From positions 2,125 through 66,124 of the forward strand of contig CAKUCX010000008.1 of NCBI GenBank assembly GCA_934643865.1: DNA of 64,000 nt, written 5' to 3'. The DNA is from an uncultured Kiritimatiellota bacterium. Its GTDB lineage: Bacteria > Verrucomicrobiota > Kiritimatiellia > RFP12 > UBA1067. Position 1 is the stretch's first letter. The number at the start of each line of letters is the position of its first letter. A program made the position numbers and the translations under genes. Under the pieces are notes generated by a model. It made no database searches and was not told where the DNA came from. It saw only the letters and a list, made by a program, of their open reading frames with translations. Shown here one piece after another: positions 9,325-63,063 of the stretch.

Positions 9325-9369
9325 TTTCTCTCCTTGTCCATAAGGCTCGCCCGTCACCGGCCGCCCGGC

Positions 9370-12515: not shown

Positions 12516-12524
12516 TGATATACT
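12516..12524 (+). promoter_or_regulatory. extended -10 box TGATATACT
   Basis: It lies 161 nt upstream of the sialidase ATG 12685, which implies a long leader. Confidence 0.45.
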
Positions 12525-12684
12525 GCCGGCATGAATCTTGGAGACGTGAGAAGCTGCCTCGACTCGGCCGCCATTGTCCTTGCGCCGGATGGTACGCGCA
12601 GCTATCGCCTTATCCGCAGCGAAATCGCATGAACGTCCCGCAACGGTATTCCATTCCGCACAGGCAAGACAGGAGGAAAACGAC

Positions 12685-13983: not shown

Positions 13984-14022
13984 GACCCTCCCGGCCGGAA
14001 CGGCGGCGGGGCGCGGCGGGAG

Positions 14023-14051
14023 TTGACCCGATGCCGCAACTGTGCGATAAT
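14023..14051 (+). promoter_or_regulatory. promoter: -35 TTGACC (14023-14028), extended -10 TGCGATAAT (14043-14051)
   Basis: Spacer is 17 nt. It lies 44 nt upstream of ATG 14095. Confidence 0.6.
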
Positions 14052-14094
14052 TGAACCGTTTCATGAAACGGAGAACAAGGAAGGACAGGATACA

Positions 14095-15159: not shown

Positions 15160-15217
15160 GGCCTGCCCGGCCGGCCCCCGGCGTTCGGCGGCGGGCCGGG
15201 CCTGCGCTTGGGCGGAA

Positions 15218-16183: not shown

Positions 16184-16184
16184 T
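16176..16184 (+). promoter_or_regulatory. extended -10 box TGCTATAAT for purL
   Basis: It overlaps the gluQ stop codon (16181-16183) and lies 31 nt upstream of purL ATG 16215. Confidence 0.6.
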
Positions 16185-16214
16185 CGCACTTCTGCCATTT
16201 CAACTCAGAGGCAC

Positions 16215-21478: not shown

Positions 21479-21487
21479 TGGTATACT
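21479..21487 (+). promoter_or_regulatory. extended -10 box TGGTATACT for rny
   Basis: It lies 35 nt upstream of ATG 21522, in the 56-nt gap after the GHKL gene. Confidence 0.6.
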
Positions 21488-34387: not shown

Positions 34388-36328
34388 TCAGAACCAGATC
34401 GAAAAGAGGTCGCCGCCCTCGCCGCACGGCACGTCCGTGCCGCTCGCGAAGTCGCAGACCGTCGCCTTGACCGTCGGTGCGCCCGGCTTCGTCAGTTCGA
34501 GGTCCCAGCTCCCCCACACGGGGCCGGCCGGCGCGCGCGGCGTCAGCTTCGCGCGGTAGCCCTTGCCGTTCACGGTGAACGCCTCGTTGATCTCGGCCCT
34601 CGTGCAGCCGACGAGGCGCGACTTCGCGAGGACGAGCGGCCCCCACATCACCGTGGCGGCCGGCGTCGTGCGGTAGCCGTCCGTGAGGTCGCGGTTCAGG
34701 CTCCCGTGGTCGGGATAGCGTCTGAAGGCCCAGATCTTGCGGTCGGGCCTGTTCAGCTCCGGCACCGTCTCCAGGCGGTCGACGACGCGCGCGTTCATGT
34801 CGAAGGCGAGCGTGTAGACCTGCGGCGCCGACGCCGCGTCCGCGCCGGCCGCCGCCACCTTCCGCACGTCCATCGCCGGGCACCAGCCCGGGCGGCGGAA
34901 CGCGACCTTCGCCGCCGGGTCCGACACCCTGACGGTGACGACGCTCCCGACCGGGTAGTTGCCCTCGATGGCGAACGTCACGCCGTCGAGCGTGACGGCC
35001 GCGTCCTGGTAGAGGTTCACGTGGAAGACGCCCGCGCGGTCGCGCGTGACCGTCGCCTGCGCGACGTCCATGAACGTGCGCGGCAGGTTGTTCACGCAGC
35101 AGTGGTTGTAGGCGTAGCCGCACTGGCCGCGCTGCTCCGAGTGGCGACCGTGGCCGCGCAGGAAGAACGGGCCGAAGGCGCCGCCGCGCCAGATGCCGGC
35201 GAGGTAGCCGTTGAAGTAGGCCGCCTCCACCGCGTCGAGGTACTTCTTGTCGCCGGTCACGAGGAAGAGGTCGACGTTCAGGCGGATCCAGTGGATGACG
35301 TCGCAGACCTCGTTCAGGGCGTTGCAGTACTGCGGCGCGCCGATGAGCTTGTCGCCGAAGCCGACGGCGCCGAACGGGTTGGCGTCGGTCTTCGCGAGGT
35401 TGTCGCGGACGCGGCGCGCCGTTTCGAGGCAGCGCGCCTCGCCCGTCGCGCGGTAGTATTCGACGAGCCCGTCCACGCAGCTCAGGAACTCGTATGTCTT
35501 CGCCCAGCTCTCGGGCTTCGGATACCAGGCGTGGAGCGGGCCGGCCTTGGGCGCGTTGCGGAAGAAGTTCGGGCACTGCCCGTCCGCGCGGTCCCAGTCG
35601 GCGAGCATCTCGGTGGCGTAGTCGAGGTATTTCCGGTTCCCGGTTTCCTCCCAGAGCATGACGAGCGGTTTGAGGATCGACATCGAGGGGAGGCCGTTCA
35701 TCGAGCCCGCGCCCGTCTCGTGGAGCCGCAGGCCAAGGCGGCGGAGCATGTCGATGAGCTGGTTCATCTGCCGCTCGACCGAGGCGAGGATCGCCCGGTC
35801 GCCCGTCGCCTTGTAGGCCATGAGCATGCCCCACATGCAGTACTTGCGGTTCCAGATGTTCCAGACGGGCATCCAGCCGTAGATCTTCTTCGTCGCCTCC
35901 GGGTCCTTGATCCAGACGAGCTCCTTGTCCTTGTACGAGCCGAGGTAGCCGTCGGGGTCCTCCAGCGCGATCATGCGCCGGCACTCCTCGGCGACGAAGC
36001 GCTTCACCGCCGGGTCGTCGAGGTAGTCGGCGACGCGCGCGGCGCCCAGCATGAGCTTGCCCCAGAACTCGCCGCGCCAGACGCCGCCGTGGCCGCGCGC
36101 GTCGTCGTCGCGCTCCACGAACGCGCGCCGCGCCTCGGCGAAGACGTTCTCCTGCGCGAATTTCGAGGTGACACGCGCGCGGAAGAGGTCGTCCATCTTC
36201 TCGGCCGGCCGGCCCCGGAGGCGCACGTCCCGCAGGCGGGGCGTCTCCATCGCGTCAGGCACCGGCGCCGCGCCCAGCTGGAACACCGCCGCTGCGGCGA
36301 AGACGGCCGCCCATGTACGTTTCTTCAT
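34388..36328 (-). CDS. GH127/DUF1680 family (beta-L-arabinofuranosidase-like) glycoside hydrolase
   Basis: Signal peptide MKKRTWAAVFAAAAVFQLGAAP. ...GGVWRGEFWGKLMLGAARV... is characteristic of DUF1680. Confidence 0.75.
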   Translation of the reverse strand: MKKRTWAAVFAAAAVFQLGAAPVPDAMETPRLRDVRLRGRPAEKMDDLFRARVTSKFAQENVFAEARRAFVERDDDARGHGGVWRGEFWGKLMLGAARVADYLDDPAVKRFVAEECRRMIALEDPDGYLGSYKDKELVWIKDPEATKKIYGWMPVWNIWNRKYCMWGMLMAYKATGDRAILASVERQMNQLIDMLRRLGLRLHETGAGSMNGLPSMSILKPLVMLWEETGNRKYLDYATEMLADWDRADGQCPNFFRNAPKAGPLHAWYPKPESWAKTYEFLSCVDGLVEYYRATGEARCLETARRVRDNLAKTDANPFGAVGFGDKLIGAPQYCNALNEVCDVIHWIRLNVDLFLVTGDKKYLDAVEAAYFNGYLAGIWRGGAFGPFFLRGHGRHSEQRGQCGYAYNHCCVNNLPRTFMDVAQATVTRDRAGVFHVNLYQDAAVTLDGVTFAIEGNYPVGSVVTVRVSDPAAKVAFRRPGWCPAMDVRKVAAAGADAASAPQVYTLAFDMNARVVDRLETVPELNRPDRKIWAFRRYPDHGSLNRDLTDGYRTTPAATVMWGPLVLAKSRLVGCTRAEINEAFTVNGKGYRAKLTPRAPAGPVWGSWDLELTKPGAPTVKATVCDFASGTDVPCGEGGDLFSIWF

Positions 36329-36352: not shown

Positions 36353-37129
36353 TCAAGCCGGGCTCTCGGCGTCGGCGGCCGCGGAATGGTAGATCCGGTG
36401 CGCCTGATAGATCGCGAGGAGGGCGAAGAGGGCGATCATCATTTCGCCGCCCTCCTCCAGGGCCGTGAAGAGGGAGGAGACCGAATCGACCGTATCGGAT
36501 TTCGAAAGCCCGCGCACATGGCGGATCCACGCCGGCATCCGGTCGCAGAGCTGCACCATCACGCCGGATGTGCCGAAGCAGCACATCGTCCACGCGACGG
36601 GGTGGAGCGCGAAGAAGCCCTTCACGAGCTGCGGGAAGAAGTACGCGAGCAGGACCGCGAAGACGCCGAAGAACGCCCCGAAGTAGAAGACGACGAACGC
36701 CTTCGCCGCAAGCGGCGCCCCGGCGTTCGTGAGGAAGCGCATCTTGAAGGGCGTGCCCGTGAGCGCCGTGCCGTCCGGCTTCACGAGGCCATGTACGCTG
36801 CCGTTCGCGTTCACCACCTCGGGGAACAGCGCCTTGATGGCCATCAGGTGCAGGTCCATCTCCTTGACGACGGCCATGACGGCGACGCAGGAGACGGCCG
36901 CGCAGAGGAGCGCCCGCCGGCGCGGCGAGCCCGTGAACGGACACTTCCACCAGACGAGCGGCACGATCGCCGCATAGAACGGCAGCGTCGCGAGCTCGAA
37001 GGGCGAGTAGCCGTCCGCATCGAAGAAGCTGCGGAGTGCCGCCGGCTCCATCGCCGTCCACGTCGCGAGGAGCGCGAGCAGGCAAAGGACGAAGAGGATG
37101 GGGGCGACGAGGTAGGGCTTGAGTTTCAT
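36353..37129 (-). CDS. integral membrane protein of unknown function, about 258 aa
   Basis: There are 6-7 hydrophobic segments. ATG 37129 is preceded by AGAGGAGA. An alternative ATG at 37153 overlaps the ligase stop (ATGA). Confidence 0.65.
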   Translation of the reverse strand: MKLKPYLVAPILFVLCLLALLATWTAMEPAALRSFFDADGYSPFELATLPFYAAIVPLVWWKCPFTGSPRRRALLCAAVSCVAVMAVVKEMDLHLMAIKALFPEVVNANGSVHGLVKPDGTALTGTPFKMRFLTNAGAPLAAKAFVVFYFGAFFGVFAVLLAYFFPQLVKGFFALHPVAWTMCCFGTSGVMVQLCDRMPAWIRHVRGLSKSDTVDSVSSLFTALEEGGEMMIALFALLAIYQAHRIYHSAAADAESPA

Positions 37130-37149
37130 GTCCGTATTCTCCTCTCTGT

Positions 37150-38838
37150 TCATTCGTCGAGCGCGCCCTTGTAGGCCACGCGGCGGACCTTCTGGATGGA
37201 CGTGCGCGCGAGCGGCTCCTTCGAGACGACGACCTTGCGCACACGCTTGTAGTCCGCGAGGTGCTGGCACTGCGCGTGGACGCGGCTCTGCGCGATCTTC
37301 TCGGCCTCCGGCCACGGCATCTCCACGCCGCCGTTCATCTCCTTGAGGAGGTCCAGGTTCGGATGGACGACGCACCCGACCTTCTCGCCGGGGATGCCGC
37401 CCGTCGTGTAGCCGACGACCACACAGTCCGCCACGACCGGATCGGCCCCGATGCGGGCCTCGACCTCCTCCGGGTAGATGTTCTTGCCCTCGCGGTTCAC
37501 GATGAGCGCCTTCTTGCGGCCTCGGATCGAGATGAGGCCGATCTCGTCGATGGAGGCGAGGTCGCCCGTCTTGAGCCAGTCGCCGTCGAACGCCTCCGCC
37601 GTCGCCGCCTCGTTGTGCCAGTAGCCCTTCATCGTGATCGGCCCCTTGACCTGCAGCTCGCCGACGCCCTGTTCGTTCGGGTCCGCGAGGCGGATCTCGA
37701 TGTTCGCGAGCTTGAGACCGATCGTGCCGATCTTCGCGACCTTCGGCCCCGCAATGGAGACGACGGGCGAGCATTCCGTGAGGCCGTAACCTTCCAGGAC
37801 CGGCAGGGCGAGGCGGCGGAAGCCTTCCAGGACGTGCTTCGGGCACGGCGCGCCGCCCACGATCATGAACCGAAGGCGTCCGCCGAGCCCCTTGCGCACG
37901 TTGTGCCGCACGAGACCGCCGAGGCCGACCGTCATCAGGAAGCGGGCCTTCTTCGACGCCTTGATCTTCGCGTCGATGCGGTCGAACATCTTCTCCGCGA
38001 GGAGCGGCACGCTCATCACGATCGTCGGCTGCAGCACGCGGATGTCCTCGCCGATCGTGTAGAGCGAGCGGACGAACGCCATCTGACAGCCCCGGAAGAG
38101 CCCCAGGACGAAGTTCGTGCAGAACGAGAAGGCGTGGAAGAGCGGCAGCACGACGAGGAGCGTGTCGTTGCCGTCCACCGTCATGTCGTCGAACGCCCGC
38201 AGCGCGCCCTCGATGTCGGCGATGAAGTTCGCGTGCGTGAGCATTGCGCCCTTCGGCTTGCCCGTCGTGCCCGACGTGTAGATGATCGAGGCGACGTCCT
38301 CCTCCTGCGCGACGTGCGTTCCGTACCAGGCCTCGTGTCCGGCGGCCCGCCGCACGGTTTCCGGATCGCTCTTGAGCGCCACGTAGTCGAAGAGCGGCAC
38401 GTCGCCGAGGGCGTCGGGGCCGACCTCCCCGGCGTCCACGAGGACGACGGCGCGCAGGTCGGGCAGGTTCGGGGCGATGAGCCGCATGAGGTCGAGGTGC
38501 GCCTTGTCCGTCGTGACGACGACGGCGCCGGAGTCCTTCAGGATGTACTCGACCTCGGCGCTGTGGAGCTTCGGGTCGAGCGGCACCACGCCCACCCCCG
38601 CGCCGCTGCACGCAAGGTAGGCCTCCATCCACTCGGGACCGTTCGGCAGCATGAGCGCGACGTTCTCGGCGCGTGGGCGCAGCGCGAAATGCGGACCATA
38701 CGCCTCGGCGACCGCGCGCACGCCGGCGAGGAAGTCCGCCCAGCTGCGCGCATGCCAGTCCTTGGCCTCAAAGTAGCGAAGCGCCGTGGCCTGTGGCGTC
38801 TCCTGGGCAAACTTCTCAAGATATGAGCGGATTGTCAT
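37150..38838 (-). CDS. AMP-dependent synthetase/ligase (long-chain acyl-CoA synthetase-like)
   Basis: Start reset to ATG 38838 (MTIRSYLEKF), with AAGGGAG upstream. The AMP-binding motifs IIYTSGTTGKPKGAMLTH, EGYGLTE and WLKTGDLA...RGRKK are present. Confidence 0.85.
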   Translation of the reverse strand: MTIRSYLEKFAQETPQATALRYFEAKDWHARSWADFLAGVRAVAEAYGPHFALRPRAENVALMLPNGPEWMEAYLACSGAGVGVVPLDPKLHSAEVEYILKDSGAVVVTTDKAHLDLMRLIAPNLPDLRAVVLVDAGEVGPDALGDVPLFDYVALKSDPETVRRAAGHEAWYGTHVAQEEDVASIIYTSGTTGKPKGAMLTHANFIADIEGALRAFDDMTVDGNDTLLVVLPLFHAFSFCTNFVLGLFRGCQMAFVRSLYTIGEDIRVLQPTIVMSVPLLAEKMFDRIDAKIKASKKARFLMTVGLGGLVRHNVRKGLGGRLRFMIVGGAPCPKHVLEGFRRLALPVLEGYGLTECSPVVSIAGPKVAKIGTIGLKLANIEIRLADPNEQGVGELQVKGPITMKGYWHNEAATAEAFDGDWLKTGDLASIDEIGLISIRGRKKALIVNREGKNIYPEEVEARIGADPVVADCVVVGYTTGGIPGEKVGCVVHPNLDLLKEMNGGVEMPWPEAEKIAQSRVHAQCQHLADYKRVRKVVVSKEPLARTSIQKVRRVAYKGALDE

Positions 38839-38863: not shown

Positions 38864-38872
38864 ATTATACCA
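38864..38872 (-). promoter_or_regulatory. extended -10 box TGGTATAAT for the ligase-to-SGNH operon
   Basis: The reverse complement of attatacca lies 26 nt upstream of ATG 38838, in the 50-nt gap after apbE. Confidence 0.6.
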
Positions 38873-38888: not shown

Positions 38889-39716
38889 TCAGGGGACGCG
38901 GCCGAACTTCGTCAAAGGATCCCGCAGGCGGTCCAGCCACGGGCGCTGCTCCCGCGCCACCCAGACGCCCGCCTCCAGCTCGCGGCACGCCGCCGCCAGC
39001 TCCCGCGCGTCGAGCGCGAGCGCGGCCGTCGAGAGCGCGTCGGCCACCGCGCCCGTCCGGGCCCGGCTCCAGCTCTGCGCCCACCGCACGGCGGGGCCGC
39101 CCCGCCGCACGTCGAAGATGTGCTCGCCGCGCACCTCGAACCCGCTTCCCGAAAGGGCGCCGTCCGAAAGGCGCAGCACCGTCTCCTGCCGCGTCCGCCC
39201 CTTCCAGCGCCCGCCAATGCCAAGCGCCCAGGGTCCGCCGCCGATCACCTGCGTCGAGGAGCCGGCATCCAGAAGCCAGTCATGGAGGTCGAACTGCTCG
39301 GAACGGAGGATCTCCGCACAGACGTCGAGCGCGTAGCCCTTGCCGATGCCGCCGAAGTCGAGCGCGACGGGGCCCTTCCGCACGCCGACGCGCACATGCT
39401 CCACGTCGAGCGTCAGCTCCGCGAAGTTCCGCCGCTCCACCGTCGGGTCGAACGCGCCGCCCGTCGCGGCGCAGACCCGCGCACTCGCCACGAGGACATC
39501 CATCGTCTCGCGCGCCACCGTCGCGATGCCGCCGTCCGGGAGGCCCCGGATCACCGCGACGTCGCTCGTGTCGTTGAAGCGCGTGAGCAACAGCTCCAAT
39601 CCGTCGATCCGGGCGAAACAGGCCGCGGCCGCGGCACCGCACAGCGCCTCGTCCTCATTTAAGCCAAAGGACACCGAGAACTCGGTGTCCATGGCCTTGT
39701 GGGAGAACTTCCTCAC
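38889..39716 (-). CDS. apbE: ApbE-family FAD:protein FMN transferase, with no signal peptide
   Basis: ...ALDFGGIGKGYALD... and the overall ApbE pattern are present. The annotated start is GTG 39716, 1 nt after the cytochrome stop. The conserved MxT start of the ApbE fold (AMDTEF) begins at residue 8. Confidence 0.8.
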   Translation of the reverse strand: MRKFSHKAMDTEFSVSFGLNEDEALCGAAAAACFARIDGLELLLTRFNDTSDVAVIRGLPDGGIATVARETMDVLVASARVCAATGGAFDPTVERRNFAELTLDVEHVRVGVRKGPVALDFGGIGKGYALDVCAEILRSEQFDLHDWLLDAGSSTQVIGGGPWALGIGGRWKGRTRQETVLRLSDGALSGSGFEVRGEHIFDVRRGGPAVRWAQSWSRARTGAVADALSTAALALDARELAAACRELEAGVWVAREQRPWLDRLRDPLTKFGRVP

Positions 39717-39717
39717 G

Positions 39718-42285
39718 TCAGCGCCTTGTACCCTGCCCTGCGCCCTTCAGGCAGAGGCCGCACACGAGCGCGCTCACGGCCGCGAAGGCGAGCGCCACGC
39801 ACCGGTGGCTCCACAGCAGCACGTCCTGTCCGTGGCTGCCGAAGACCGTCATCATCGGCATCACCGCCGTGAAGACCGTCCCCGCCGCGAGGAGCGTCCA
39901 GAACGCCCACGCGAGGGACATCCAGAGATTCCGCTCCGTGCGCTCCGCCGCGCGCATCCCCGCGATCAGGACGACGCCCGCCGCGAAGCCGCCGCCCGCG
40001 ACCATGTGGAGGACGAGCCACCAGCCCGTCATCGCCCCGCACAGCCAGCCGACGACGCCCGACAGGGCGAGGTAGCCGAGGCAGCAGACGAAGCCGACGT
40101 CGACGATCCACTTCGCGAAGCCCCAGATGAAGTCGTCCGAGTTGTCCGAGATCCACCGCCCCAGACGGTTCAGCGCCACGGCCGCCGCCGCCGCCGCGAA
40201 GAGGCAGAGAAGACCGAACACCGTCCAGAGGAACACCTTGAAGAGCGGACGCATCGCGAACGTCGTCCCGAGCGTCGCGTAGTAGAAGCCGTCCACCCCC
40301 AGCAGCTCGGCCTGGGAAACAAACGGCGCCGCAGCCTCCTGCACCGGACCCGTCGGCGCGATCTTCCCGAGGAAGAACGCCGAATCGGCGGTGTGGCACG
40401 CCGCGCACTTGGCCGGCGCCGCGCCGCGCGCCTGGCGCGCCGCGCGCACGTCGTGCCCGACCGGCCAGGAGACCGGCTGCGCCTCGGGTGCGCCCGGCGT
40501 CTTGACGAGCGCACCGTCCGCACCGAGGGAGAAGACGAGCCCGCCCGCGACGTAGCGCACGCCCTTACCCGCATGGACAAGCGCCCGGCGCACCATCTCC
40601 TCCGTGAAGGGCTGCTCGGCGTCCCTGACCTTCGCGTACTGTTCAAGCGTCCAGGCGTCGAGCATCGGCACGAACGCCGTGCCATCCGCCGAAAGCGTCC
40701 CGACGGGGAAGGCGTTCGTCGGGGCCGCCACGCCCTCGCACGCCGTCACGCCGCCCGCGCCGTCGATCGTATAGACCTTGCCCGCGCGGCAGGCGGCGAC
40801 CTTCTCCTTCGACACGCCGACCTTCGCGTTGAAGAGCGTGGCGAGCAGATTGCGGAACTCGCCCGGCGCGCGGTCCTCCGCCGCGATGTAGGGGACGTCG
40901 TTCGTGGGCGTGCGGTAGACGGGCACGCCGTCGTCTCGCAGCGTCGTCACGCCCACGGGGCCGTCCGTCTCCTTCAGGAGTTCCAGCGCCACCGTGACCC
41001 GTTCGACGACCGTGAACGCCTCGCCCGCGAGCGCGGCGGCCTCGGTGGGCGGAACCGGCTTCAGCGCGCCGCCCTCGGCCACGCGGTGGAAACCGCTCGG
41101 CCACATCATGCGGCGGGGCTCCACGACGCCCTGCGCGTTCTTCACGAAGACGGGTTCGAGGATGACCGGGCAGTCCGTCGCCCACTGGGCGCGCCCGTAG
41201 ACGCCGATGCGGTTGGCGCGCGCCGTGCGCACCTGCGCGAGCCTGCCGCCCTCCGTCACGCCCGCGTGGCAGACCGTGCAGGCGAGCTTCTGGAAGTGGA
41301 CGAGCGGGATGCCGGCGTGGACGGGCTTCGGCCCCGCCCCGTCCTTCTCCACGTGGCAGGACGCGCAGCTCTTCGTCGCCACGCGGTGGTCCATCCCGTT
41401 CTGGTGGCAGTCCACGCACCGCATCCCGCGCTGGAGATGCACATCGCCCGAAATCGCGTGGGACGGCATCCCCTTCTGCGACACGCCGTGGCACGCCAGG
41501 CAGTTCTCGTTCTTCGGTTTGCCCACATTGAAGACGCAGCGCCCCTTCTCGTCGAACTTCGCGGGGTCGTAGGCCGTCGTCTCGGGAACCTTGAAGAGAT
41601 GGTCGTCGGGATTTTCCGCCGCCGCCCAGGTGGCCTCCAGCCGCTCGTTCATGCCGCCCACGGCGGCGAGCCCGGAGGCGGCCGTCGCGGCGCCCTGCCA
41701 GTTCTCGCGCAGCACCTGCCGCGCCCACTCGCTCGAATCATAGCCCTCCTGCTGGTGGCAGGCGAGGCAGTTGGGGCCGAGCGCGCCCGTCACGAACCAG
41801 CGCTGGCGCGCGCCGGCGACCTCGTTGAGCGCGTTCGTGTCGCACGCGATGCCGCCGCCGGGGAAGTGGCGGCCGAAGAGCTTCGTCCACTGCCAGCACG
41901 AGAGGCCCACGTCGCGCGGCGCGCGCGCGCCCGCCTGGCCGTGGAGGGAGAGCGGGATCGCCGTGCCCGTCGCCTCGTCCGCCCAGAACCACGGCTCGCC
42001 CGCGACGGAGGACGGCGCGTCGCCCGCGTCCAGCCCCGTGCGGAAGTGGCTGCCCCGGTGCATCGCGGCGACGTCGTGGCACTGCCCGCACGTCTGCGCG
42101 AGGGAGATCGGCCGCGGGAGGCGTGCGGTCGGGGAGACCTTCTCGCCGTCCGCGTCGCGCGGCGCGAGCCTGTGGACGGGGACCGTGCGCCCCCCGTTCC
42201 AGTGCGAGGCCGCTTCGGCCCCCGGACCAATCAACGACGCCGCGAGGGCAAACGCCGCCGCGCACGCGGGAAGGCTGCTCTTCAT
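39718..42285 (-). CDS. heptahaem c-type cytochrome fused to a C-terminal polytopic membrane domain, 855 aa
   Basis: A signal peptide is present. Seven CXXCH motifs are CGQCH, CLACH x2, CVDCH, CASCH, CTVCH and CAACH. The last about 220 aa contain about 5 TM helices with conserved-looking His residues. Confidence 0.8.
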   Translation of the reverse strand: MKSSLPACAAAFALAASLIGPGAEAASHWNGGRTVPVHRLAPRDADGEKVSPTARLPRPISLAQTCGQCHDVAAMHRGSHFRTGLDAGDAPSSVAGEPWFWADEATGTAIPLSLHGQAGARAPRDVGLSCWQWTKLFGRHFPGGGIACDTNALNEVAGARQRWFVTGALGPNCLACHQQEGYDSSEWARQVLRENWQGAATAASGLAAVGGMNERLEATWAAAENPDDHLFKVPETTAYDPAKFDEKGRCVFNVGKPKNENCLACHGVSQKGMPSHAISGDVHLQRGMRCVDCHQNGMDHRVATKSCASCHVEKDGAGPKPVHAGIPLVHFQKLACTVCHAGVTEGGRLAQVRTARANRIGVYGRAQWATDCPVILEPVFVKNAQGVVEPRRMMWPSGFHRVAEGGALKPVPPTEAAALAGEAFTVVERVTVALELLKETDGPVGVTTLRDDGVPVYRTPTNDVPYIAAEDRAPGEFRNLLATLFNAKVGVSKEKVAACRAGKVYTIDGAGGVTACEGVAAPTNAFPVGTLSADGTAFVPMLDAWTLEQYAKVRDAEQPFTEEMVRRALVHAGKGVRYVAGGLVFSLGADGALVKTPGAPEAQPVSWPVGHDVRAARQARGAAPAKCAACHTADSAFFLGKIAPTGPVQEAAAPFVSQAELLGVDGFYYATLGTTFAMRPLFKVFLWTVFGLLCLFAAAAAAVALNRLGRWISDNSDDFIWGFAKWIVDVGFVCCLGYLALSGVVGWLCGAMTGWWLVLHMVAGGGFAAGVVLIAGMRAAERTERNLWMSLAWAFWTLLAAGTVFTAVMPMMTVFGSHGQDVLLWSHRCVALAFAAVSALVCGLCLKGAGQGTRR

Positions 42286-42286
42286 G

Positions 42287-42706
42287 CTAGTTCCTCTCCT
42301 CGTCCTGGGTCGCCAGGGAGAAATTCCACACGTCGGCCGCGCGGCAGGCGTCGATGAGCCCCATGAGCTTCTCGTAGGGGACGGTCTTGTCGGCGCGGAT
42401 GACGACGGGCTGCCCCGGATAGAGCTTCGCGATGCGCGTGAGGCGCGCCGTCACGTCCTCCAGAGACAGCCGGTTGCCGTTCACGGAGACGTCGCCGGAT
42501 GCGTTGAGGTTCAGGATGATCTCGCCCGGCATGCGGCCCGGCACCGTCGCGGACTTCGCGGTCGGCAGGGCGATGGCGACCTCGGTCTCCCACTGGGAGA
42601 AGACGCTGGTGGTCACGAAGAAGCACAGGAGCAGGAAGATGACGTCCATCAGGGACGTCATCTGCAGCGCCGGGGCGTGGCTGCGGATCGTGCGGCGGAA
42701 GTTCAT
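42287..42706 (-). CDS. exbD: ExbD/TolR family biopolymer transport protein
   Basis: At 139 aa it has a single N-terminal TM (LMDVIFLLLCFF) and an ExbD-like periplasmic domain. Its ATG overlaps the exbB stop (TGATG). Confidence 0.85.
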   Translation of the reverse strand: MNFRRTIRSHAPALQMTSLMDVIFLLLCFFVTTSVFSQWETEVAIALPTAKSATVPGRMPGEIILNLNASGDVSVNGNRLSLEDVTARLTRIAKLYPGQPVVIRADKTVPYEKLMGLIDACRAADVWNFSLATQDEERN

Positions 42707-43338
42707 CAGAACGCCTTTTGCAGGATGACCGCGAGCGTCTCAAGCCCGGCGATGCGCTTCGCCGTGCGGCGGCGCAGGAACGCATGGCACGCGAGGCACG
42801 GGATGGAGATGACGAGGCCGAACACCGTCGTGATGATGGCCTGCGAGATGCCGGCGGCGAGGACGACGGGCTTCGCGTTCGCCGCGATGTCGTTCGCGAT
42901 GCCGCCGAACGCCTGGAACATGCCAAGCACCGTGCCGAGCAGGCCCACGAGCGGCGCGATCGCCGCGATGTCCGCAAGCCAGTCGACGGCCGCCTGGAGC
43001 TGCTCCGCGACGTGCGCGCCCGCCGTCTCGACGGCCGGCGACACGTCCACGCGCTGCCCCTGCACCGCGCCCCGCGCCGCGTCGAGCGCCGCGAGCGCGA
43101 GGGCCGCGAACGCGCAGGGCCGCCGCTCACAGAGGCGGCGCGCCTCGCCGTGGTCGCCCACCTGCAGCTTGCTGAAGACGTCGCTCATGAGCGTGCGCGG
43201 CGTCAGCGCCTCGCGCCGCTGCGCGAAGAGGAGATACAGCACAAGCGCGAGCGCAACCACCGAAAGGGCCGCAAGCGCCCACATGAGGGGGCCGCCGTAG
43301 TTCCACGCCTGCGCCAACGTCATACCCGTTTCATTCAT
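42706..43338 (-). CDS. exbB: MotA/TolQ/ExbB proton-channel protein
   Basis: It has three TM segments and ...APLVGLLGTVLGMFQAF.... Its ATG overlaps the argH stop (ATGA at 43335-43338). Confidence 0.85.
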   Translation of the reverse strand: MNETGMTLAQAWNYGGPLMWALAALSVVALALVLYLLFAQRREALTPRTLMSDVFSKLQVGDHGEARRLCERRPCAFAALALAALDAARGAVQGQRVDVSPAVETAGAHVAEQLQAAVDWLADIAAIAPLVGLLGTVLGMFQAFGGIANDIAANAKPVVLAAGISQAIITTVFGLVISIPCLACHAFLRRRTAKRIAGLETLAVILQKAF

Positions 43339-44684
43339 CCGAGGAGTTCCTTCATTTTTGCTTCAAACTGTTCCGCGCGCGCGGCCACCGACGTCCGCAG
43401 CGCCGCCACGCGCCCCGCATAGAGCGCATAGTCGAGCCCGGCGGTGGCGCCCGCGTGCGTCTTCGCCGCGACGGCGGCGTCCGGGTCCTCCGTCGCGAGC
43501 GCCTCCAGGTTGTCGCGCACCTGATGGTAGGCTTCGCGCCAGGGCGTGCCGGCGGCGACCTTCCGGAGCGCGACATCCGTCGCGAACACGCCGGGGATGA
43601 ACCCCGCGCGCAGCTTCGCCTCGTCGACGCCCAGGCCGCGCACGAACTTCGCGAGGATGCGCAGGGTCGTGCGCGTGATCGAGAGCCCCTTCATGTAGAG
43701 GCCCTTGCAATCCTGCAGGTCGCGGTTGTACCCGCCGGGCATCGCGTGGAGCATCGAGAGGGCCGCCGTCGCGAGGCCGAGCACCTGGGCGGTCTTGGAG
43801 CGCACGAGCTCCAGGACGTCCGGGTTGTACTTCTGCGGCATGATCGAGCTGCCCGTGCAGTACGCGCGTGGCAGGGAGAAGTAGCCGAACTCCGGCATCG
43901 AGAAGAGGATCATGTCCTCCGCGAGGCGCGAGAGGACGGCCATCAGCTGCGCGAGCGCCGAGAGGAGCGCCGCCTCGTCCTCGCCGCGCCCCATCGAGGC
44001 GCCGAAGACGTTGTGGAGCGGCCGCGCGAAGCCCAGGAGGTCGCTCGTCCGCTGCCGGTCGAGCGGCAGGGGCACGCCGTACCCCGCCGCGCTGCCGAGC
44101 GGACAGGCGTCGTTCAGCGTGTAGGCGGCCTCCAAGTTCGCCGTCTGGTCGAGGATCATCTCCGCGTGGCCCGTCGCCCACACGCCGACCGAGCTCGGCA
44201 TCGCCGGCTGCAGGTGCGTGCGGCCCACCATCGGCACGCGGTCGTGGACCTTGCCGAAGTCGACGAGTGCCGCCGCGAGATCCGCCAGCTCCCCTTCGAG
44301 GCCCAGGAGCTGGTCCTTGATGTGGAGGCGCACGTCCACCGCGACCTGGTCGTTGCGGCTGCGGCCCGTGTGGATCTTCTTGCCGAGGTCGCCCAGCGTC
44401 TCCGTCAGGCGCGTCTCCACGGCCATGTGGACGTCCTGGTCCTGCTCGCGCACGACGAAGAAGCGGTCGGCCACCACGTCCGCGAGCGCGGCGCGCACGC
44501 GCGCGGCCTCCTCCTGCGTCACGACGGGCGGGGTGACGGGCATCTCCGAAAGCATCGTCACGTGGGCCGCCGTCCCGAGGCAGTCCCAGCGCACAAGGTC
44601 CATGTCGAGGACAGGATCGTCCCCGACCGTGTAGTCGAGGACGTCCGGGTCAACGTCACCGGTTATCGTCTTTTCTGTCTTCAT
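43335..44684 (-). CDS. argH: argininosuccinate lyase
   Basis: Start reset to ATG 44684 (MKTEKTITGD...). The signatures TGRSRNDQVAVD and GSSIMPQKYNPDVLE are present. Confidence 0.95.
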   Translation of the reverse strand: MKTEKTITGDVDPDVLDYTVGDDPVLDMDLVRWDCLGTAAHVTMLSEMPVTPPVVTQEEAARVRAALADVVADRFFVVREQDQDVHMAVETRLTETLGDLGKKIHTGRSRNDQVAVDVRLHIKDQLLGLEGELADLAAALVDFGKVHDRVPMVGRTHLQPAMPSSVGVWATGHAEMILDQTANLEAAYTLNDACPLGSAAGYGVPLPLDRQRTSDLLGFARPLHNVFGASMGRGEDEAALLSALAQLMAVLSRLAEDMILFSMPEFGYFSLPRAYCTGSSIMPQKYNPDVLELVRSKTAQVLGLATAALSMLHAMPGGYNRDLQDCKGLYMKGLSITRTTLRILAKFVRGLGVDEAKLRAGFIPGVFATDVALRKVAAGTPWREAYHQVRDNLEALATEDPDAAVAAKTHAGATAGLDYALYAGRVAALRTSVAARAEQFEAKMKELLG

Positions 44685-45834
44685 CCAAGATCTCTTGCAG
44701 CTGCGCGTCCGCCTCGTCCAGCAGCCGCCCAAGCTCGCCGGGGGCCTCCCCGCGCGCCAGGGCCGCCAGGAACCGGCGGTAGGCCTCGGCCGCCTCGGCC
44801 AGAGCCGGGCCGCGTCCAAGGGCGCAGAACAGCATCTCCCGGGCCTTGCGCGCGGCGGCCTCGCGCAGGGCCGGATGGTCGGCCGAAAGCGCAATCGCCT
44901 CGCGGAAGGTGCAGGATGTGCCATTCGCGCCTATATTTCTATCAAATTCGGCTGGATAAAGCAAGAGACGAGAGGTGAAAACCTTGAGATCCCACCGGCT
45001 CGCCCGCCCCGGGGAGAGGACGGCGCGCGTAAGGCGGGCGAGGCGCTCGTCGCTCGCGCGGTCCTGCTCGTGGGGGTCCTTCTCGCCCGTCAGGTCGGCC
45101 GCGAGGCGCGCAGCGTCGAACGCCCGCCCAGCGGCGAAGCCCTCCAGCGTCTTGCGGAAGAGCTTCCGTTCCTTGAGCCACGCGACGACGTAGCCGCAGA
45201 GCGCCGCATCCTCCCCCTTCCCCGCCCGCAGGTTGCGGCAGAGGGCGGGGAAGAACGGCAGACGCGCCGCGCGCCACATCGCCAGCACCGCGCGCTTGTC
45301 GTCGTGGACCGTCTCCCCGTCGAGCCCCCGCAGGACCCCCAGCACCATCCAGCCCGGCATCGCCGCTGCCGCCGCCACGCCCGGCGGGCGGTTTCGGTCG
45401 ATCCACCCCCGGAAATACGCCTTCACGATCGCGTAGCGCAGCGCCTCCAGATCCGAGAACCCCGGCGACGGCAGCCACACGTGCGTGATCGCCGCCCCCG
45501 CGCGCCGGCCCGCGCGGGAAATCACCCGCACGTCGTTCGTCGTGCCGTCCTGCGCGTGGATGAGGAGGCCCGCCCCGCCGCGCGGCATGGAGAGGCCGTA
45601 GACCCGCTCGACGTCGCGCACAAGGCGCGTCGTGAACTGGAGAATGGGCAGGCGAAACCCCACCGGGTCGCCCGGCACGTCCGCCGCCACAACCTCCACG
45701 AAGCCGTCCGCGCCGCGCGCGACCTTCGGCATGTCCGCCGCGCGCCGCCGGAGAGGCGGCGCGTCCTCCGCCGCCTGCGCCCGGACGGCGAGGGCCGCAC
45801 ACGCCACGAGGGCGAGGAAAAGCATCCTCTTCAT
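44656..45834 (-). CDS. secreted hypothetical protein, 392 aa
   Basis: Signal peptide MKRMLFLALVACAALAVRAQA. Its 3' end overlaps argH by 29 nt. No family was recognised. Confidence 0.6.
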   Translation of the reverse strand: MKRMLFLALVACAALAVRAQAAEDAPPLRRRAADMPKVARGADGFVEVVAADVPGDPVGFRLPILQFTTRLVRDVERVYGLSMPRGGAGLLIHAQDGTTNDVRVISRAGRRAGAAITHVWLPSPGFSDLEALRYAIVKAYFRGWIDRNRPPGVAAAAAMPGWMVLGVLRGLDGETVHDDKRAVLAMWRAARLPFFPALCRNLRAGKGEDAALCGYVVAWLKERKLFRKTLEGFAAGRAFDAARLAADLTGEKDPHEQDRASDERLARLTRAVLSPGRASRWDLKVFTSRLLLYPAEFDRNIGANGTSCTFREAIALSADHPALREAAARKAREMLFCALGRGPALAEAAEAYRRFLAALARGEAPGELGRLLDEADAQLQEILDEDRKDDNR

Positions 45835-45838
45835 GCGC

Positions 45839-46960
45839 CTAGCGGATCTTGACGAGGAGGATGAGGATGATCGGCATCAGGAACGCCTGCACGAGGACGA
45901 AGCGCATGAGGACCTGCGCGTTCGACCACTTCAGCTCCCGCTTGCAGTGGTCGTGGAGCGGAAAGCGGACGCTCTGGACGAGCTTGACGAGGGGGTTGCG
46001 CCGCGCGCGCTCCTCCGGCGCCAGCATCGACGGCGGACGCACGTCCAGCCCGCAGCGGCGGAAGAGGCGCAGGAGGAGGATCTTCACAAGCCCGCCCCCG
46101 CCGTTCACGAGGACGACGGGCGCGAACGCGAAGAGGAGCAGCGGGTTGCCCGTCACAAGCACGCCCGCCCCGAGGAGGAGGCCGAGGAAGCGCGAGCCCG
46201 CGTCGCCCATGAGGACCTTCGACGGCTCGGCGTTCCACCACAGGTAGCCCGCGAAGCCGCCCGAAACCGTCAGGAGGAGGACGGCCCAGCGCACGGCGAG
46301 GTAGTTGTGGGGGACGCGCAGGTAGTCGGCCATCGGGCGGTAGCCGACGAGGCCGTAGAGGAAGACGGCGAGCGCAACGAGGGAAATGACCGTCAGCGAC
46401 CCCGCGAGGCCGTCCACGCCGTCCGAGCAGTTCGTCGCGTTCATGACGACGAAGAGGACGAAGGCCGCCGCCGGGACGTATGCCCACCAGGGGAGCGTCC
46501 AGACGCGCATCGTGAACGGCAGCCAGACGCGGCCCTCCAGCGCCGACCAGACGAAGAGGGCGACGCCGAGGCAGACGACGGCGTCCAAAAGCCCCTTCCG
46601 GAGCTGGCCCCACGGCTCGACGGCGCGGTCGTCGAGGTAGCCGAAGGCCATCGCGACGTAGAGGCAGAAGATCATGCCGAGCGCGGGCGCCGAAAGCGGC
46701 ACCACGAGGAGGACGACCGGCAGGACGAGGAGCGTGACCCACAGGCCCGTGCCCGTCGGCTTGCCGACGGAGGCCATGCCGTCCCGGCCGAGGACGGCCT
46801 TGCCGTGGTCGCGCGGCGAGAAGCGCCACAGCCTCGGCAGCAGAAAGGCGACGGCGAACGCCGCGAGGAGCGTCCCCGCCGCGGCGAGCAGAACATGGGA
46901 GCGCAGAAGCCGAAACGGCCCCCACGCCGCTTCAAGGAAAGGGGCGAGATGGTAGAGCAT
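45839..46960 (-). CDS. mraY: divergent MraY-like polyprenyl-phosphate sugar-phosphate transferase (phospho-N-acetylmuramoyl-pentapeptide transferase family)
   Basis: It is polytopic. NATNCSDGVDGLAG (compare NxxNxTDGLDGLA), MGDAGSRFLG and a C-terminal RFPLHDH...KWSNAQVLMRF (compare PLHHHFE..GW) are present. Confidence 0.7.
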   Translation of the reverse strand: MLYHLAPFLEAAWGPFRLLRSHVLLAAAGTLLAAFAVAFLLPRLWRFSPRDHGKAVLGRDGMASVGKPTGTGLWVTLLVLPVVLLVVPLSAPALGMIFCLYVAMAFGYLDDRAVEPWGQLRKGLLDAVVCLGVALFVWSALEGRVWLPFTMRVWTLPWWAYVPAAAFVLFVVMNATNCSDGVDGLAGSLTVISLVALAVFLYGLVGYRPMADYLRVPHNYLAVRWAVLLLTVSGGFAGYLWWNAEPSKVLMGDAGSRFLGLLLGAGVLVTGNPLLLFAFAPVVLVNGGGGLVKILLLRLFRRCGLDVRPPSMLAPEERARRNPLVKLVQSVRFPLHDHCKRELKWSNAQVLMRFVLVQAFLMPIILILLVKIR

Positions 46961-46983: not shown

Positions 46984-46992
46984 AGTATACCA
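46984..46992 (-). promoter_or_regulatory. extended -10 box TGGTATACT for the mraY-like operon
   Basis: The reverse complement of agtatacca lies 24 nt upstream of ATG 46960. Confidence 0.6.
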
Positions 46993-50793: not shown

Positions 50794-55179
<4,386 letters not shown>

Positions 55180-55203
55180 TCCAGTGTTCTCCTGTTCGCG
55201 AAA

Positions 55204-59127
<3,924 letters not shown>

Positions 59128-63054: not shown

Positions 63055-63063
63055 AGTATACCA
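63055..63063 (-). promoter_or_regulatory. extended -10 box TGGTATACT
   Basis: The reverse complement of agtatacca lies 12 nt upstream of ATG 63043, giving a near-leaderless transcript. Confidence 0.45.

Follow-up and report, generated by a model that had tools for sequence, protein, structure and literature searches.

In the TonB-ExbB-ExbD and TolQ-TolR-TolA systems, the genes of the two stator subunits lie adjacent and overlapping in the canonical operons, and the partner TonB or TolA is recognised by an N-terminal anchor, a Pro-rich spacer and a TonB_C domain. Periplasmic multihaem c domains are joined to a membrane part in the inner-membrane multihaem quinol/quinone oxidoreductases, i.e. 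NapC/NirT/CymA/NrfH, ImcH of Geobacter with its 7 haems and CbcL, whose c domain with 9 haems is fused to a dihaem cytochrome b. For the oxidation of sugars, comparators are the complexes of sugar dehydrogenase and cytochrome c in the membranes of acetic acid bacteria, glucoside 3-dehydrogenase, and periplasmic enzymes of the Gfo/Idh/MocA family (GFOR of Zymomonas, the ThuAB 3-keto-trehalose pathway). Flavinylated and cytochrome components are used interchangeably according to a survey of ApbE-associated extracytosolic electron transfer, in which ApbE and FMN-binding proteins were kept only if they carried a signal peptide or a lipidation site (Meheust et al. 2021, bioRxiv 10.1101/2021.01.07.425746). 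A literature search returned no published description of an architecture combining exbBD, a cytochrome gene and apbE, and the preliminary description of the present locus, in which it was not recognised as a described system, stands in this respect. Here, such a locus of human-gut Kiritimatiellia was analysed within its window, i.e. the whole stretch of 64 kb of DNA. We consider it rather probable that two separately inherited blocks have been joined in one co-directional unit and that the cytochrome module acts as an electron wire from the periplasm to quinone. The first block, the gene of a secreted hypothetical protein followed by argH, exbB and exbD, would provide an ordinary ExbB/ExbD (TolQ/TolR-like) proton-driven stator, whose TonB/TolA-type partner would be encoded elsewhere. 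The second, a heptahaem c-type cytochrome fused to a five-helix membrane domain together with a signal-less ApbE, would be the remnant of an older widespread module.

The genes argH, exbB, exbD, heptahaem cytochrome and apbE follow each other on the minus strand at distances of -4 to +1 nt (Table 1), and the coordinates and identities proposed for them earlier were confirmed, with Pfam and NCBIfam profile scores for the identities. The junctions reported at that time can all be read in the sequence: the argH stop and the exbB start have ATGA in common, exbB and exbD overlap in TGATG, and gaps of 1 nt each separate exbD from the cytochrome gene and the latter from apbE. Genes of this genome are closely packed in general; the other co-directional pairs of the window lie -4 to +24 nt apart. 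Since argH is as closely coupled to exbB and as well conserved, packing by itself is no evidence of shared function here. The mraY-like protein reaches 94 bits with TIGR00445 (mraY), under the cut-off of 192, and its gene recurs upstream in loci L005, L006, L009, L010, L015, L018, L022 and L091. For the secreted hypothetical protein no match was found in Pfam or NCBIfam; its gene is the first of a persistent hyp-argH-exbB-exbD block, with homologues before argH-exbBD in L001, L003, L005, L087 and L088. The acyl-CoA synthetase gene accompanies apbE across gut Kiritimatiellia and, judged by synteny, lies outside the module in distant phyla. Elsewhere in the window, a 3-keto-disaccharide hydrolase family protein is encoded at 14023-15159.

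The -10 box noted before at 46984 is indeed present on the minus strand. The motif TGGTATAMT occurs in 4 copies in the window vs 0.04 expected, and 3 of the 4 copies are located shortly upstream of a gene start. A further copy, between apbE and the acyl-CoA synthetase gene, bounds the predicted unit at seven genes. The seven-gene unit proposed earlier fits these motifs, and there is no promoter or terminator signal inside this unit, which contains both exbBD and the cytochrome gene; terminator-like sites occur at chance level (5 found vs 5.1 expected), all of them inside genes.

Table 1. Coordinates of genes, protein domains and predicted promoter motifs at the locus (positions of the window; domains are listed below the cytochrome)
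Feature	Position	Strand	Evidence or remarks
Extended -10 promoter-like motif TGGTATACT	46984..46992	(-)	23 nt before mraY-like ATG; predicted start of seven-gene unit
mraY-like glycosyltransferase family 4 membrane protein, 373 aa	45839..46960	(-)	PF00953 98 bits
Secreted hypothetical protein, 392 aa, signal peptide	44656..45834	(-)	29-nt overlap with argH
argH, argininosuccinate lyase, 449 aa	43335..44684	(-)	TIGR00838 288.7 bits vs cut-off 279.5
exbB/tolQ-type stator subunit, 210 aa, 3 TM helices	42706..43338	(-)	PF01618 85 bits
exbD/tolR-type stator subunit, 139 aa	42287..42706	(-)	PF02472 100 bits
Heptahaem cytochrome, 855 aa	39718..42285	(-)	exactly seven CXXCH (aa 66, 173, 262, 290, 307, 336, 627) and membrane domain
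Cytochrome signal peptide, aa 1-25, ends AEA	42211..42285	(-)	sequence
Periplasmic hexahaem domain, aa 26-370	41176..42210	(-)	CXXCH at 66, 173, 262, 290, 307, 336
Haem-free alpha/beta middle domain, aa 371-610	40456..41175	(-)	AF2 pLDDT about 85-95
Seventh haem segment, aa 611-665	40291..40455	(-)	invariant H611 and C627-A-A-C-H631
C-terminal 5-helix membrane domain, aa 666-855	39721..40290	(-)	alignment, helix prediction
ApbE-family protein, 275 aa, GTG start, no signal peptide	38889..39716	(-)	PF02424 107.5 bits
Extended -10 motif TGGTATAAT	38864..38872	(-)	between apbE and acyl-CoA synthetase; predicted separate promoter, end of unit
Long-chain acyl-CoA synthetase, ATG at 38838	37150..38838	(-)	PF00501 256 bits

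The cytochrome is a member of a broad uncharacterised family, which contains at least 313 clusters at 50% identity (E<=1e-30) and for which neither a solved-structure match nor a literature match was found. The signal peptide, the seven CXXCH motifs and the C-terminal domain of about five helices that had been described were all recovered, the helices lying within aa 666-854. In 48 homologues the seven motifs show no variation, and seven further histidines are likewise invariant, H611 and the candidate distal histidines H38, H80, H283, H300, H323 and H330 of the hexahaem domain; seven CXXCH are also found in each of 34 distant homologues. The N-terminus before S27-H28-W29-N30-G31-G32 is not conserved among the 48 homologues. 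HMM searches, as had been suggested for the two halves of the protein, matched the haem part to the multihaem models PF14537 (34.4 bits) and PF14522 (33.9 bits), both over the gathering threshold, and gave no Pfam match for the membrane part. The middle domain, likewise without a Pfam match, is missing or much shorter in family forms of 600-730 aa.

For the membrane domain no relative was found in Pfam, PDB sequences or Foldseek, the best matches being FdnI (E=0.41) and a de novo designed bundle with two haems (E about 1). In distant phyla, a homologue of the domain is encoded after the cytochrome as a membrane protein of its own, 161-226 aa long, and many of the distant loci have such a separate ORF (L052, L055-58, L060-66 and others). 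The invariant residues of the domain are H760, H827, M811, Q820 and G743, the first four of them being invariant across the alignment with the separate subunits. The positive-inside charge distribution of the domain places both invariant histidines in the outer leaflet. Predicted to lie where TM3 and TM5 end on the periplasmic side, H760 and H827 probably hold one b-type haem beside a quinone site, these two invariant histidines being the evidence for a b-haem/quinone role of the domain. Like the NapC/NirT/CymA/NrfH/ImcH/CbcL class, the protein joins a periplasmic multihaem c domain to a membrane part, a c-type module being fused to a putative b-type one as in CbcL, and seven CXXCH being present as in ImcH. 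It differs from this class in that its membrane domain is C-terminal, has five helices and only two invariant histidines, in that a haem-free middle domain of 240 aa is present, and in that neither PF03264 (NapC/NirT) nor PF01292 (HydC/FdnI) is matched and no sequence or fold relative was found in the PDB.

The presumed ancestral module was traced in 34 distant loci (33-38% identity) of Verrucomicrobia, the Pontiellaceae isolate B12227, Lentisphaerae and Aminicenantes/Acidobacteriota. In the module of these loci, the gene of a TAT-exported Gfo/Idh/MocA dehydrogenase is followed by those of the heptahaem cytochrome, a small membrane subunit (the part fused to the cytochrome in the window), a signal-less ApbE, an F5/8-type-C protein and a PMT_2 glycosyltransferase. 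The Gfo/Idh/MocA protein of ~461 aa is encoded immediately upstream of the cytochrome in 32/32 informative distant loci; its consensus carries an RR.F motif near the N-terminus, and the TAT signal PF10518 was detected in L055, the only module copy among three that was scanned. The wider neighbourhood also encodes ThuA, a TIM barrel similar to xylose isomerase and more TAT Gfo/Idh/MocA proteins. No exbB-like ORF was found within 8 kb of the cytochrome gene in any distant locus, as far as each contig reaches. Similar to the sugar dehydrogenase-cytochrome complexes, the ancestral module combines the genes of a TAT-exported dehydrogenase, a multihaem cytochrome and a membrane subunit, and the ThuA and TIM-barrel genes near the distant modules as well as the hydrolase family protein of the window recall the ThuAB type of pathway. 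Different from those complexes, the dehydrogenase belongs to the NAD(P)-binding Rossmann type rather than to the flavoproteins or PQQ enzymes, 7 haems instead of 3 are present in the cytochrome, whose fold differs as well, and the window lacks the dehydrogenase gene.

Under the two-block explanation, the cytochrome would be exported by Sec and seven bis-His haems would be attached covalently in the periplasm. Electrons taken from one or more periplasmic dehydrogenases would pass along the haem chain to the membrane domain, and periplasmic sugar oxidation would be linked to the membrane quinone pool; the module probably wires periplasmic dehydrogenases to this pool. In the lineage of the window, the dehydrogenase gene would have lost its adjacent place, which exbBD would have taken upstream via rearrangement, and ExbBD and the cytochrome, which are predicted to be co-transcribed, need not act together. 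The lack of any Gfo/Idh/MocA gene in the 64 kb of the window counts against this explanation, as does the fact that no Pfam, PDB-sequence or Foldseek relative was found for the membrane domain.

The electrons might also flow in the reverse direction, the protein being a quinol-oxidising inner-membrane cytochrome, in function like CymA, ImcH or CbcL, that delivers menaquinol electrons to a periplasmic or extracellular acceptor, as a sink for a fermentative gut anaerobe. This is unlikely, although quinol dehydrogenases are generally built from a periplasmic multihaem and a membrane domain, the dehydrogenase gene has left its place beside the cytochrome in the clade of the window, and short cytochrome forms of 600-650 aa have lost the middle domain. 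The similarity to the NCBIfam models for DmsE-family decahaem cytochromes, NrfB and ExtN points the same way, being weak (E 3e-5 to 6e-3) and far under the cut-offs; the lack of NapC/NirT and HydC/FdnI matches speaks against it. Moreover, none of the loci examined has a gene for a terminal reductase, a porin-cytochrome or an outer-membrane cytochrome next to it, and the neighbour that is ancestral and strictly conserved is an enzyme of the dehydrogenase type, not a reductase.

In the preliminary description, a possible functional link was proposed between the stator and the membrane-anchored cytochrome, which would replace TonB/TolA, so that the pmf drives or gates the cytochrome or its redox state controls the stator. 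The stator pair itself is well defined: both proteins are clear members of their Pfam families, the closest solved structures for exbB are E. coli ExbB (2e-11) and TolQ (3e-8), and residues 14-132 of ExbD align to 18-133 of E. coli ExbD, the essential aspartate of the TM helix being kept as Asp21 (in SLMDVIF), equivalent to Asp25 of E. coli. The adjacent and overlapping genes resemble canonical TonB/Tol operons. In contrast to these, both proteins score under the NCBIfam equivalog cut-offs of the TolQ/R as well as the ExbB/D models, and the gene after exbD encodes no TonB/TolA, the cytochrome having neither N-terminal anchor nor Pro-rich spacer nor TonB_C domain. Among the large ORFs scanned in the window no TonB_C domain, TonB/TolA-like protein or TonB-dependent receptor was found, as had been claimed, and no second exbB/exbD was found in its 64 kb; a sibling genome with argH-exbBD-cytochrome (L021) has another exbB-exbD pair, with the gene of a Pro-rich protein bearing a membrane anchor behind it, which speaks against the stator-cytochrome link.

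The synteny of the exbD-cytochrome junction gave a divided answer. The junction is kept in 32/44 informative species-level loci of gut Kiritimatiellia (49-96% identity), among them L005 and L018, which diverge most (49-50%); its spacing is <=4 nt in 29/37 loci, and it is usually translationally coupled. It is unusually persistent, exceeding usual casual synteny, which counts against the two-block explanation and for stator coupling. The coupling is also favoured by the shared predicted unit, by the lack of a TonB/TolA-like gene among the ORFs scanned in the window and by the membrane domain of the cytochrome, with which a stator might in principle make contact. The junction is missing in 12/44 gut-clade loci and all 34 distant loci, where the cytochrome gene occurs alone or with Gfo/ApbE genes, as in L039 of gut Kiritimatiellia (Gfo-cytochrome-apbE-acs without exbBD, 67% identity), and exbBD never recurs independently. 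Conversely, orthologous ExbB/ExbD with 70-76% identity to those of the window precede unrelated genes in loci without the cytochrome: hyp-argH-exbB-exbD is followed by NadA in L087 and by a secreted repeat protein in L088, and PGI-exbB-exbD by a PIG-L deacetylase in L086. The conserved partner of the membrane domain is the haem domain itself, separate genes encoding the two elsewhere, and the equally close argH joins an unrelated function to exbB. The proposed stator-cytochrome link is weakened by these findings and now appears quite improbable.

It is hardly likely that the module serves the modification of cell-envelope glycans and not energy metabolism. In this reading, PMT_2 (ArnT-like) and the F5/8 lectin-like protein would handle a lipid-linked or envelope glycan, one sugar of which would be oxidised by the exported dehydrogenase, with the cytochrome only disposing of electrons. 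In its favour, the PMT_2 and F5/8 genes are conserved downstream of apbE in most distant loci, and the mraY-like gene heads the unit of the window, recurs in L005, L018 and L091, and would fit an envelope theme together with exbBD as a Tol-like envelope system. Against it, the PMT_2 and F5/8 genes are missing from the window and the gut clade, and the ThuA gene, the TIM-barrel gene and several Gfo paralogues in the neighbourhood suggest a catabolic 3-keto-sugar chemistry.

With regard to the two joined blocks, no conserved [S/T]G[A/S][S/T] flavinylation motif was found in any module protein, which counts against this explanation, as does the missing signal peptide of ApbE, and no FMN_bind domain was found in the proteins neighbouring apbE. 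As in the ApbE-associated systems surveyed (10.1101/2021.01.07.425746), apbE of the window is clustered with an extracytosolic redox protein; different from them, its product is signal-less and its neighbours are without FMN_bind or [S/T]GA[S/T]. The conserved H-K-A-M-D-T motif of apbE lies 15 codons past an in-frame stop, and ApbE is signal-less in every lineage where this could be judged. The link between apbE and the cytochrome that had been noted is real: the two adjoin in most gut and distant loci, and with apbE downstream in 29/34 of the distant loci this is the phylogenetically deepest link of the module.

The genes argH, exbB, exbD, the cytochrome gene and apbE were found in the ORF list as five consecutive minus-strand genes, and their junctions were read directly in the sequence. 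As the preliminary description had stated, argH and exbB share ATGA, exbB and exbD overlap as TGATG, and a single base separates exbD from the cytochrome gene and the latter from apbE. The argH ORF can be extended to 44924, but its 449-aa form already exceeds the TIGR00838 cut-off. Co-directional gene pairs elsewhere in the window lie −4 to +24 nt apart, and tight gene spacing is a general trait of this 70% GC genome.

Genes of the argH-exbBD-cytochrome-apbE cluster and copies of the extended -10 motif in the window
Feature	Position	Strand	Basis
argH	43335..44684	-	449-aa form above TIGR00838 cut-off
exbB	42706..43338	-	MotA_ExbB PF01618, 85 bits vs gathering 22.9
exbD	42287..42706	-	ExbD PF02472, 100.1 bits vs gathering 25.4
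Cytochrome gene, 855 aa	39718..42285	-	PF14522, 33.9 vs 24.8; PF14537, 34.4 vs 25
apbE, GTG start	38889..39716	-	PF02424, 107.5 bits vs gathering 25.6
Extended -10 TGGTATAMT	21479-21487	+	motif search of window
Extended -10 TGGTATAMT	38864-38872	-	motif search of window
Extended -10 TGGTATAMT	46984-46992	-	motif search of window
Extended -10 TGGTATAMT	63055-63063	-	motif search of window

The -10 box proposed for a seven-gene unit was recovered at 46984 as TGGTATACT, 23 nt ahead of the start of the mraY-like gene. The extended motif TGGTATAMT has four copies in the window (0.04 expected) and looks like a housekeeping promoter signature of this lineage: a start codon follows 23-35 nt after the copies at 21479, 38864 and 46984, and the one at 63055 is close to where an ORF is annotated to begin. 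The copy at 38864 separates apbE from the acyl-CoA synthetase gene, for which a promoter of its own is predicted. This motif search was more informative than a two-hexamer sigma-70 scan, by which no promoter was detected inside the seven-gene unit. Terminator-like hairpins occurred at chance level in the window, every one of them inside a gene. From these hairpins and the motifs at 46984 and 38864, a transcription unit is therefore predicted that comprises the mraY-like gene, hyp392 (encoding a 392-aa secreted hypothetical protein), argH, exbB, exbD, the cytochrome gene and apbE, in support of the earlier prediction. The mraY-like GT4 protein (45839-46960 (-)) scored 94 bits with TIGR00445 (cut-off 192) and may not be the true MraY; its gene recurs ahead of the hyp-argH-exbBD block in the comparison loci L005, L006, L009, L018 and L091.

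Judged by family models and alignment, ExbB and ExbD of the window are ordinary members of their families. Their scores against the NCBIfam equivalog models stayed far below the cut-offs (tolQ 60.5 vs 221, exbB 53.7 vs 206, tolR 50.2 vs 127, ExbD_1 37.4 vs 153), and in a PDB search the pair was slightly nearer to solved ExbB/ExbD than to TolQ/TolR. Residues 14-132 of the window's ExbD align to 18-133 of E. coli ExbD, and Asp21, within the TM-helix segment SLMDVIFLLL, matches the essential D25 of the E. coli protein. The window holds a single exbB/exbD pair. The reported lack of a TonB/TolA-like gene and of a TonB-dependent receptor was upheld for the ORFs scanned, in which neither TonB_C nor a receptor domain was detected; likewise no TonB/TolA-type partner gene was found beside exbBD among these ORFs. 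The sibling genome L021 also has argH-exbBD-cytochrome and carries two stator sets. The second one (12100-16407) consists of genes for an 881-aa TPR protein, an exbB-like protein of 205 aa, a weakly exbD-like protein of 161 aa and a membrane-anchored Pro-rich protein, which gave no Pfam match and is a candidate TonB/TolA-like partner. Such genomes thus have further stator sets with TonB/TolA-like candidates.

In the preliminary description it was proposed that the stator pair works with the cytochrome in the place of TonB or TolA. The cytochrome shares no defining feature of these proteins and, as far as its sequence indicates, is not an analogue of them. It lacks an N-terminal TM anchor that stays uncleaved and contacts ExbB/TolQ through a conserved Ser/His motif, its N-terminus being variable, signal-peptide-like and ending in AEA; conservation starts at S27-H28-W29-N30, with no conserved column earlier in 48 homologues. 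No Pro-rich or long helical periplasmic spacer is present in the cytochrome, the periplasmic part of which is made up of haem and alpha/beta domains, and its proline content of 5.5% is average for the window. The C-terminus, where a TonB_C or TolA domain was looked for, is a five-helix membrane domain, and Pfam and NCBIfam gave multihaem families only. Hyp392 and the cytochrome N-terminus were considered as TonB-like anchors and rejected, as both carry signal peptides of the cleavable type.

For the analysis of synteny, ORFs of 80 species-representative loci were scored with the proteins of the window, and the results were placed on a tree built from the haem core by neighbour joining. Within the clade of gut and rumen Kiritimatiellia, exbD was located directly upstream of the cytochrome gene in 32 of the 44 informative species loci, including the most divergent members L005 and L018 (49-50% identity), so that within this clade the arrangement is of long standing and well conserved. 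The spacing was at most 4 nt in 29 of 37 junction loci when extra assemblies were counted. The expected conservation of the junction thus stood within the clade but not throughout, as it was absent in 12 of the 44 loci and in all 34 distant loci. The 12 comprise a monophyletic group of nine species with forms of about 610 aa, plus L038, L039 and L040; here the cytochrome gene comes after unrelated genes, e.g. der or ribosomal protein genes.

The stator genes were followed in the opposite direction by homologue searches. A first search with ExbB returned only relatives of at least 76% identity, which were uninformative for synteny, and the divergent ExbB of the cytochrome-bearing locus L050 was used instead. 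Six orthologue contexts were looked up with this query, three of which run on into a cytochrome gene (L089, L090, L091). L090 was considered as an exbBD locus without cytochrome and rejected, since translation gave a cytochrome split by a frameshift: at 2764-4694 it lies in two ORFs (277 and 366 aa) with the break between the third and fourth CXXCH, which reflects either a frameshift error or a pseudogene. Locus L087 reads hyp-argH-exbB-exbD-NadA with no cytochrome next, in L088 hyp-argH-exbB-exbD is followed by the gene of a secreted repeat protein without CXXCH, and L086 reads PGI-exbB-exbD-PIG-L deacetylase. ExbB and ExbD of these three loci are 70-76% identical to those of the window and nearer to them than the proteins of the cytochrome-bearing L050 or L005. 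As the hypothetical protein and argH, where present beside these exbBD genes, are orthologous as well, the persistent unit is therefore hyp392-argH-exbB-exbD. Moreover, argH has no conceivable stator role and is nevertheless ATGA-coupled to exbB, so that translational coupling is not evidence of shared function here.

The distant set consisted of 34 loci with 33-38% identity from groundwater Verrucomicrobia, the Pontiellaceae isolate B12227, Lentisphaerae and many Aminicenantes/Acidobacteriota. Within 8 kb of the cytochrome gene, as far as the contig reached, no exbB-like ORF was found in any of them. In all 32 loci that were informative on this point, the gene immediately upstream encoded a Gfo/Idh/MocA oxidoreductase some 461 aa long; its consensus contains an RR.F motif close to the N-terminus, and the TAT-signal model PF10518 matched in L055 among three module copies scanned. 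The cytochrome gene is followed by that of a 161-226 aa membrane protein aligning with the C-terminal domain of the window's cytochrome, with H760, H827, M811, Q820 and G743 invariant across phyla. An ApbE gene comes next in 29 of 34 loci, which supports the suggested link between apbE and the cytochrome, and then genes for an F5/8-type-C (NedA-like galactose-binding) protein and a PMT_2 glycosyltransferase. In order, the module comprises TAT Gfo/Idh/MocA, heptahaem cytochrome, small 2-His membrane protein, signal-less ApbE, F5/8-type-C and PMT_2. Loci with the six-gene module are L043, L044, L052, L054-L066 and L068-L085 (e.g. L055 6577-14349 and L059 6439-14532). Still further upstream are genes for ThuA, a HEAT-repeat protein and a xylose-isomerase-like TIM barrel, along with additional Gfo/Idh/MocA paralogues of the TAT type; such surroundings are typical of periplasmic 3-keto-sugar chemistry.

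In L039, a gut Kiritimatiellia locus with a cytochrome 67% identical to that of the window, the order is Gfo-cytochrome-apbE-acyl-CoA synthetase, with no exbBD. The window itself gave no match to a Gfo/Idh/MocA gene anywhere in its 64 kb; it keeps the order heptahaem cytochrome, 2-His membrane part and signal-less ApbE, with the first two fused and apbE 1 nt on. That Gfo/Idh/MocA oxidoreductase, heptahaem cytochrome, 2-His membrane subunit and signal-less ApbE form a conserved, undescribed module, of which the window appears to hold a remnant, is the more solid result of this analysis. No description of the six-gene module, the cytochrome family or the gene arrangement was found in the searched literature, in agreement with the initial impression that this is not a described system. 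In the simplest history, the cytochrome-apbE pair would be left over from the older Gfo/Idh/MocA module, and a rearrangement in gut Kiritimatiellia would have put it behind the hyp-argH-exbBD block. The relation between split and fused genes indicates that the partner of the membrane domain is the haem domain and not the stator.

A machine composed of the ExbB/ExbD stator and the cytochrome is set against this history. The exbD-cytochrome junction is long-lived and tightly coupled, albeit in one clade, and recruitment of the stator would explain such a junction across lineages only 49% identical. Nevertheless, such a machine is unlikely, because each block occurs without the other (exbBD in L086-L088; the cytochrome in the 12 gut-clade species and the 34 distant loci) and no independent recurrence of exbBD beside the cytochrome was found; the proposed functional tie is thus poorly supported. 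Slightly more doubtful still is the specific version in which ExbB/ExbD of gut Kiritimatiellia were recruited to the cytochrome instead of TonB/TolA, coupling pmf to a periplasmic electron-transfer chain by gating or moving it. A stator-cytochrome machine would give the 5:2 motor family a new output, which the comparative evidence makes improbable.

The cytochrome was also characterized as a family. The seven CXXCH motifs counted before are located at aa 66, 173, 262, 290, 307, 336 and 627, and all are invariant among 48 homologues, as are seven further periplasmic histidines (H38, H80, H283, H300, H323, H330, H611), which would be enough for bis-His ligation of every haem. By motifs, histidines and Pfam models, the protein is predicted to be a multihaem cytochrome c (c3/c7-type). 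The signal-peptide-like N-terminus and five C-terminal helices (aa 666-854) agree with the earlier reading. The region of aa ~371-610 is variable among homologues, missing from forms of 600-730 aa, and confidently modelled by AF2 as a putative haem-free alpha/beta domain. Closest homologues came from human-gut, Hadza, rumen and horse-faeces MAGs, those bearing a lineage name being mostly labelled Kiritimatiellia or Kiritimatiellae. With a profile of the 48 homologues, at least 313 clusters (50% identity) reached E≤1e-30 and 597 reached E≤1e-10. Family members come from Kiritimatiellia of gut and rumen and from Verrucomicrobia, Lentisphaerae and Aminicenantes.

Invariant positions of the membrane domain in the 48 homologues are H760, H827 and the segment M809-P-M-M812. 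Charged segments are present after TM1 (NRLGRW), after TM3 (RAAERTER) and at the C-terminus (KGAGQGTRR), a distribution that would place the haem domain, the TM2-3 and TM4-5 loops, H760 and H827 on the periplasmic side. Foldseek searches of the PDB gave no match with E<0.5 for the full AF2 model (mean pLDDT 68.5) or the membrane domain alone (pLDDT 67.2); the sole recurring local match was 7ah0, a de novo two-haem four-helix bundle. PDB profile searches with alignments of the family and of the membrane domain were at noise level only (ActA 0.14, FdnI 0.41, EccD5 0.11), and Pfam at E≤10 returned nothing usable for the membrane domain, the middle domain or the 392-aa hypothetical protein. The suggested assignment of the membrane half to DUF4405 or Ni_hydr_CYTB was not borne out, the best values being E=9.4 for DUF4405, in one distant membrane subunit (Pfam at E≤10), and E=0.41 for FdnI.

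H760 and H827 may ligate one b-type haem in the outer leaflet beside a quinone site, and the cytochrome would connect periplasmic dehydrogenases with the quinone pool as an electron carrier. Its mode of action would resemble that of the inner-membrane multihaem quinol/quinone oxidoreductases CymA/NrfH, ImcH and CbcL, although membership tests place it outside their families, and that of the cytochrome subunits of membrane-bound sugar dehydrogenases, to which family it does not belong either. NapC/NirT/CymA/NrfH proteins combine a PF03264 tetrahaem domain with an N-terminal TM helix, whereas the cytochrome lacks PF03264 and has a C-terminal membrane part. The Ni_hydr_CYTB/FdnI-type domain of CbcL has four haem-ligating histidines; in contrast, the cytochrome lacks PF01292 and has two invariant histidines. 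The partners strictly conserved with this family, a TAT-exported sugar dehydrogenase of the NAD(P) type, a novel membrane subunit with two histidines and an ApbE that lacks a signal peptide, together suggest an undescribed route from periplasmic sugar oxidation to the quinone pool. This bears on how supposedly fermentative PVC bacteria of animal guts dispose of or harvest electrons.

The ApbE of the window contains the segments GGIGKGYALD and ADALST, which we take to be conserved cofactor-binding motifs. Its conserved N-terminal H-x-A-M-x-T motif lies at most 21 codons past an in-frame stop, as in L021, L059, L061, L062, L072, L076, L082 and L084, so the protein has no signal peptide. In characterised ApbE systems, the enzyme is extracytosolic with a signal peptide or lipobox, unlike that of the window. 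A conserved [S/T]G[A/S][S/T] flavinylation motif was absent from the cytochrome, Gfo/Idh/MocA and F5/8 proteins and from the membrane subunit, and Pfam gave no FMN_bind match in the proteins beside ApbE in the window and the module copies scanned. As a speculation, ApbE might act in the cytoplasm and modify a non-canonical site of a TAT substrate. The module would also exemplify an exported redox complex that is served by a cytoplasmic ApbE. Signal-less ApbE was deliberately left out of a large published survey of ApbE clusters (Meheust et al. 2021, bioRxiv 10.1101/2021.01.07.425746).

The gene content of the window points to a glycan degrader with at least one gene of 3-keto-sugar metabolism. 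Glycan genes encode a member of the 3-keto-disaccharide hydrolase family PF06439 (14023-15159 (+)), a BNR sialidase-like protein (12574-13983 (+)), a GH92 enzyme (7108-9357 (-)) and a GH127-like enzyme (34388-36328 (-)). A gene for a glycyl-radical enzyme with PFL-like and Gly_radical domains occupies 70-1890 (+). At 50794-59127 (-), the N-terminal sequences of two very long ORFs (1461 and 1307 aa) resemble those of rpoC and rpoB. Downstream of the acyl-CoA synthetase gene, 36353-37150 (-) encodes in about 265 codons a multi-pass membrane protein without annotation, starting with MKLKPYLVAPILF; in L039, the protein encoded after the synthetase (12426-13211) has a similar N-terminus.
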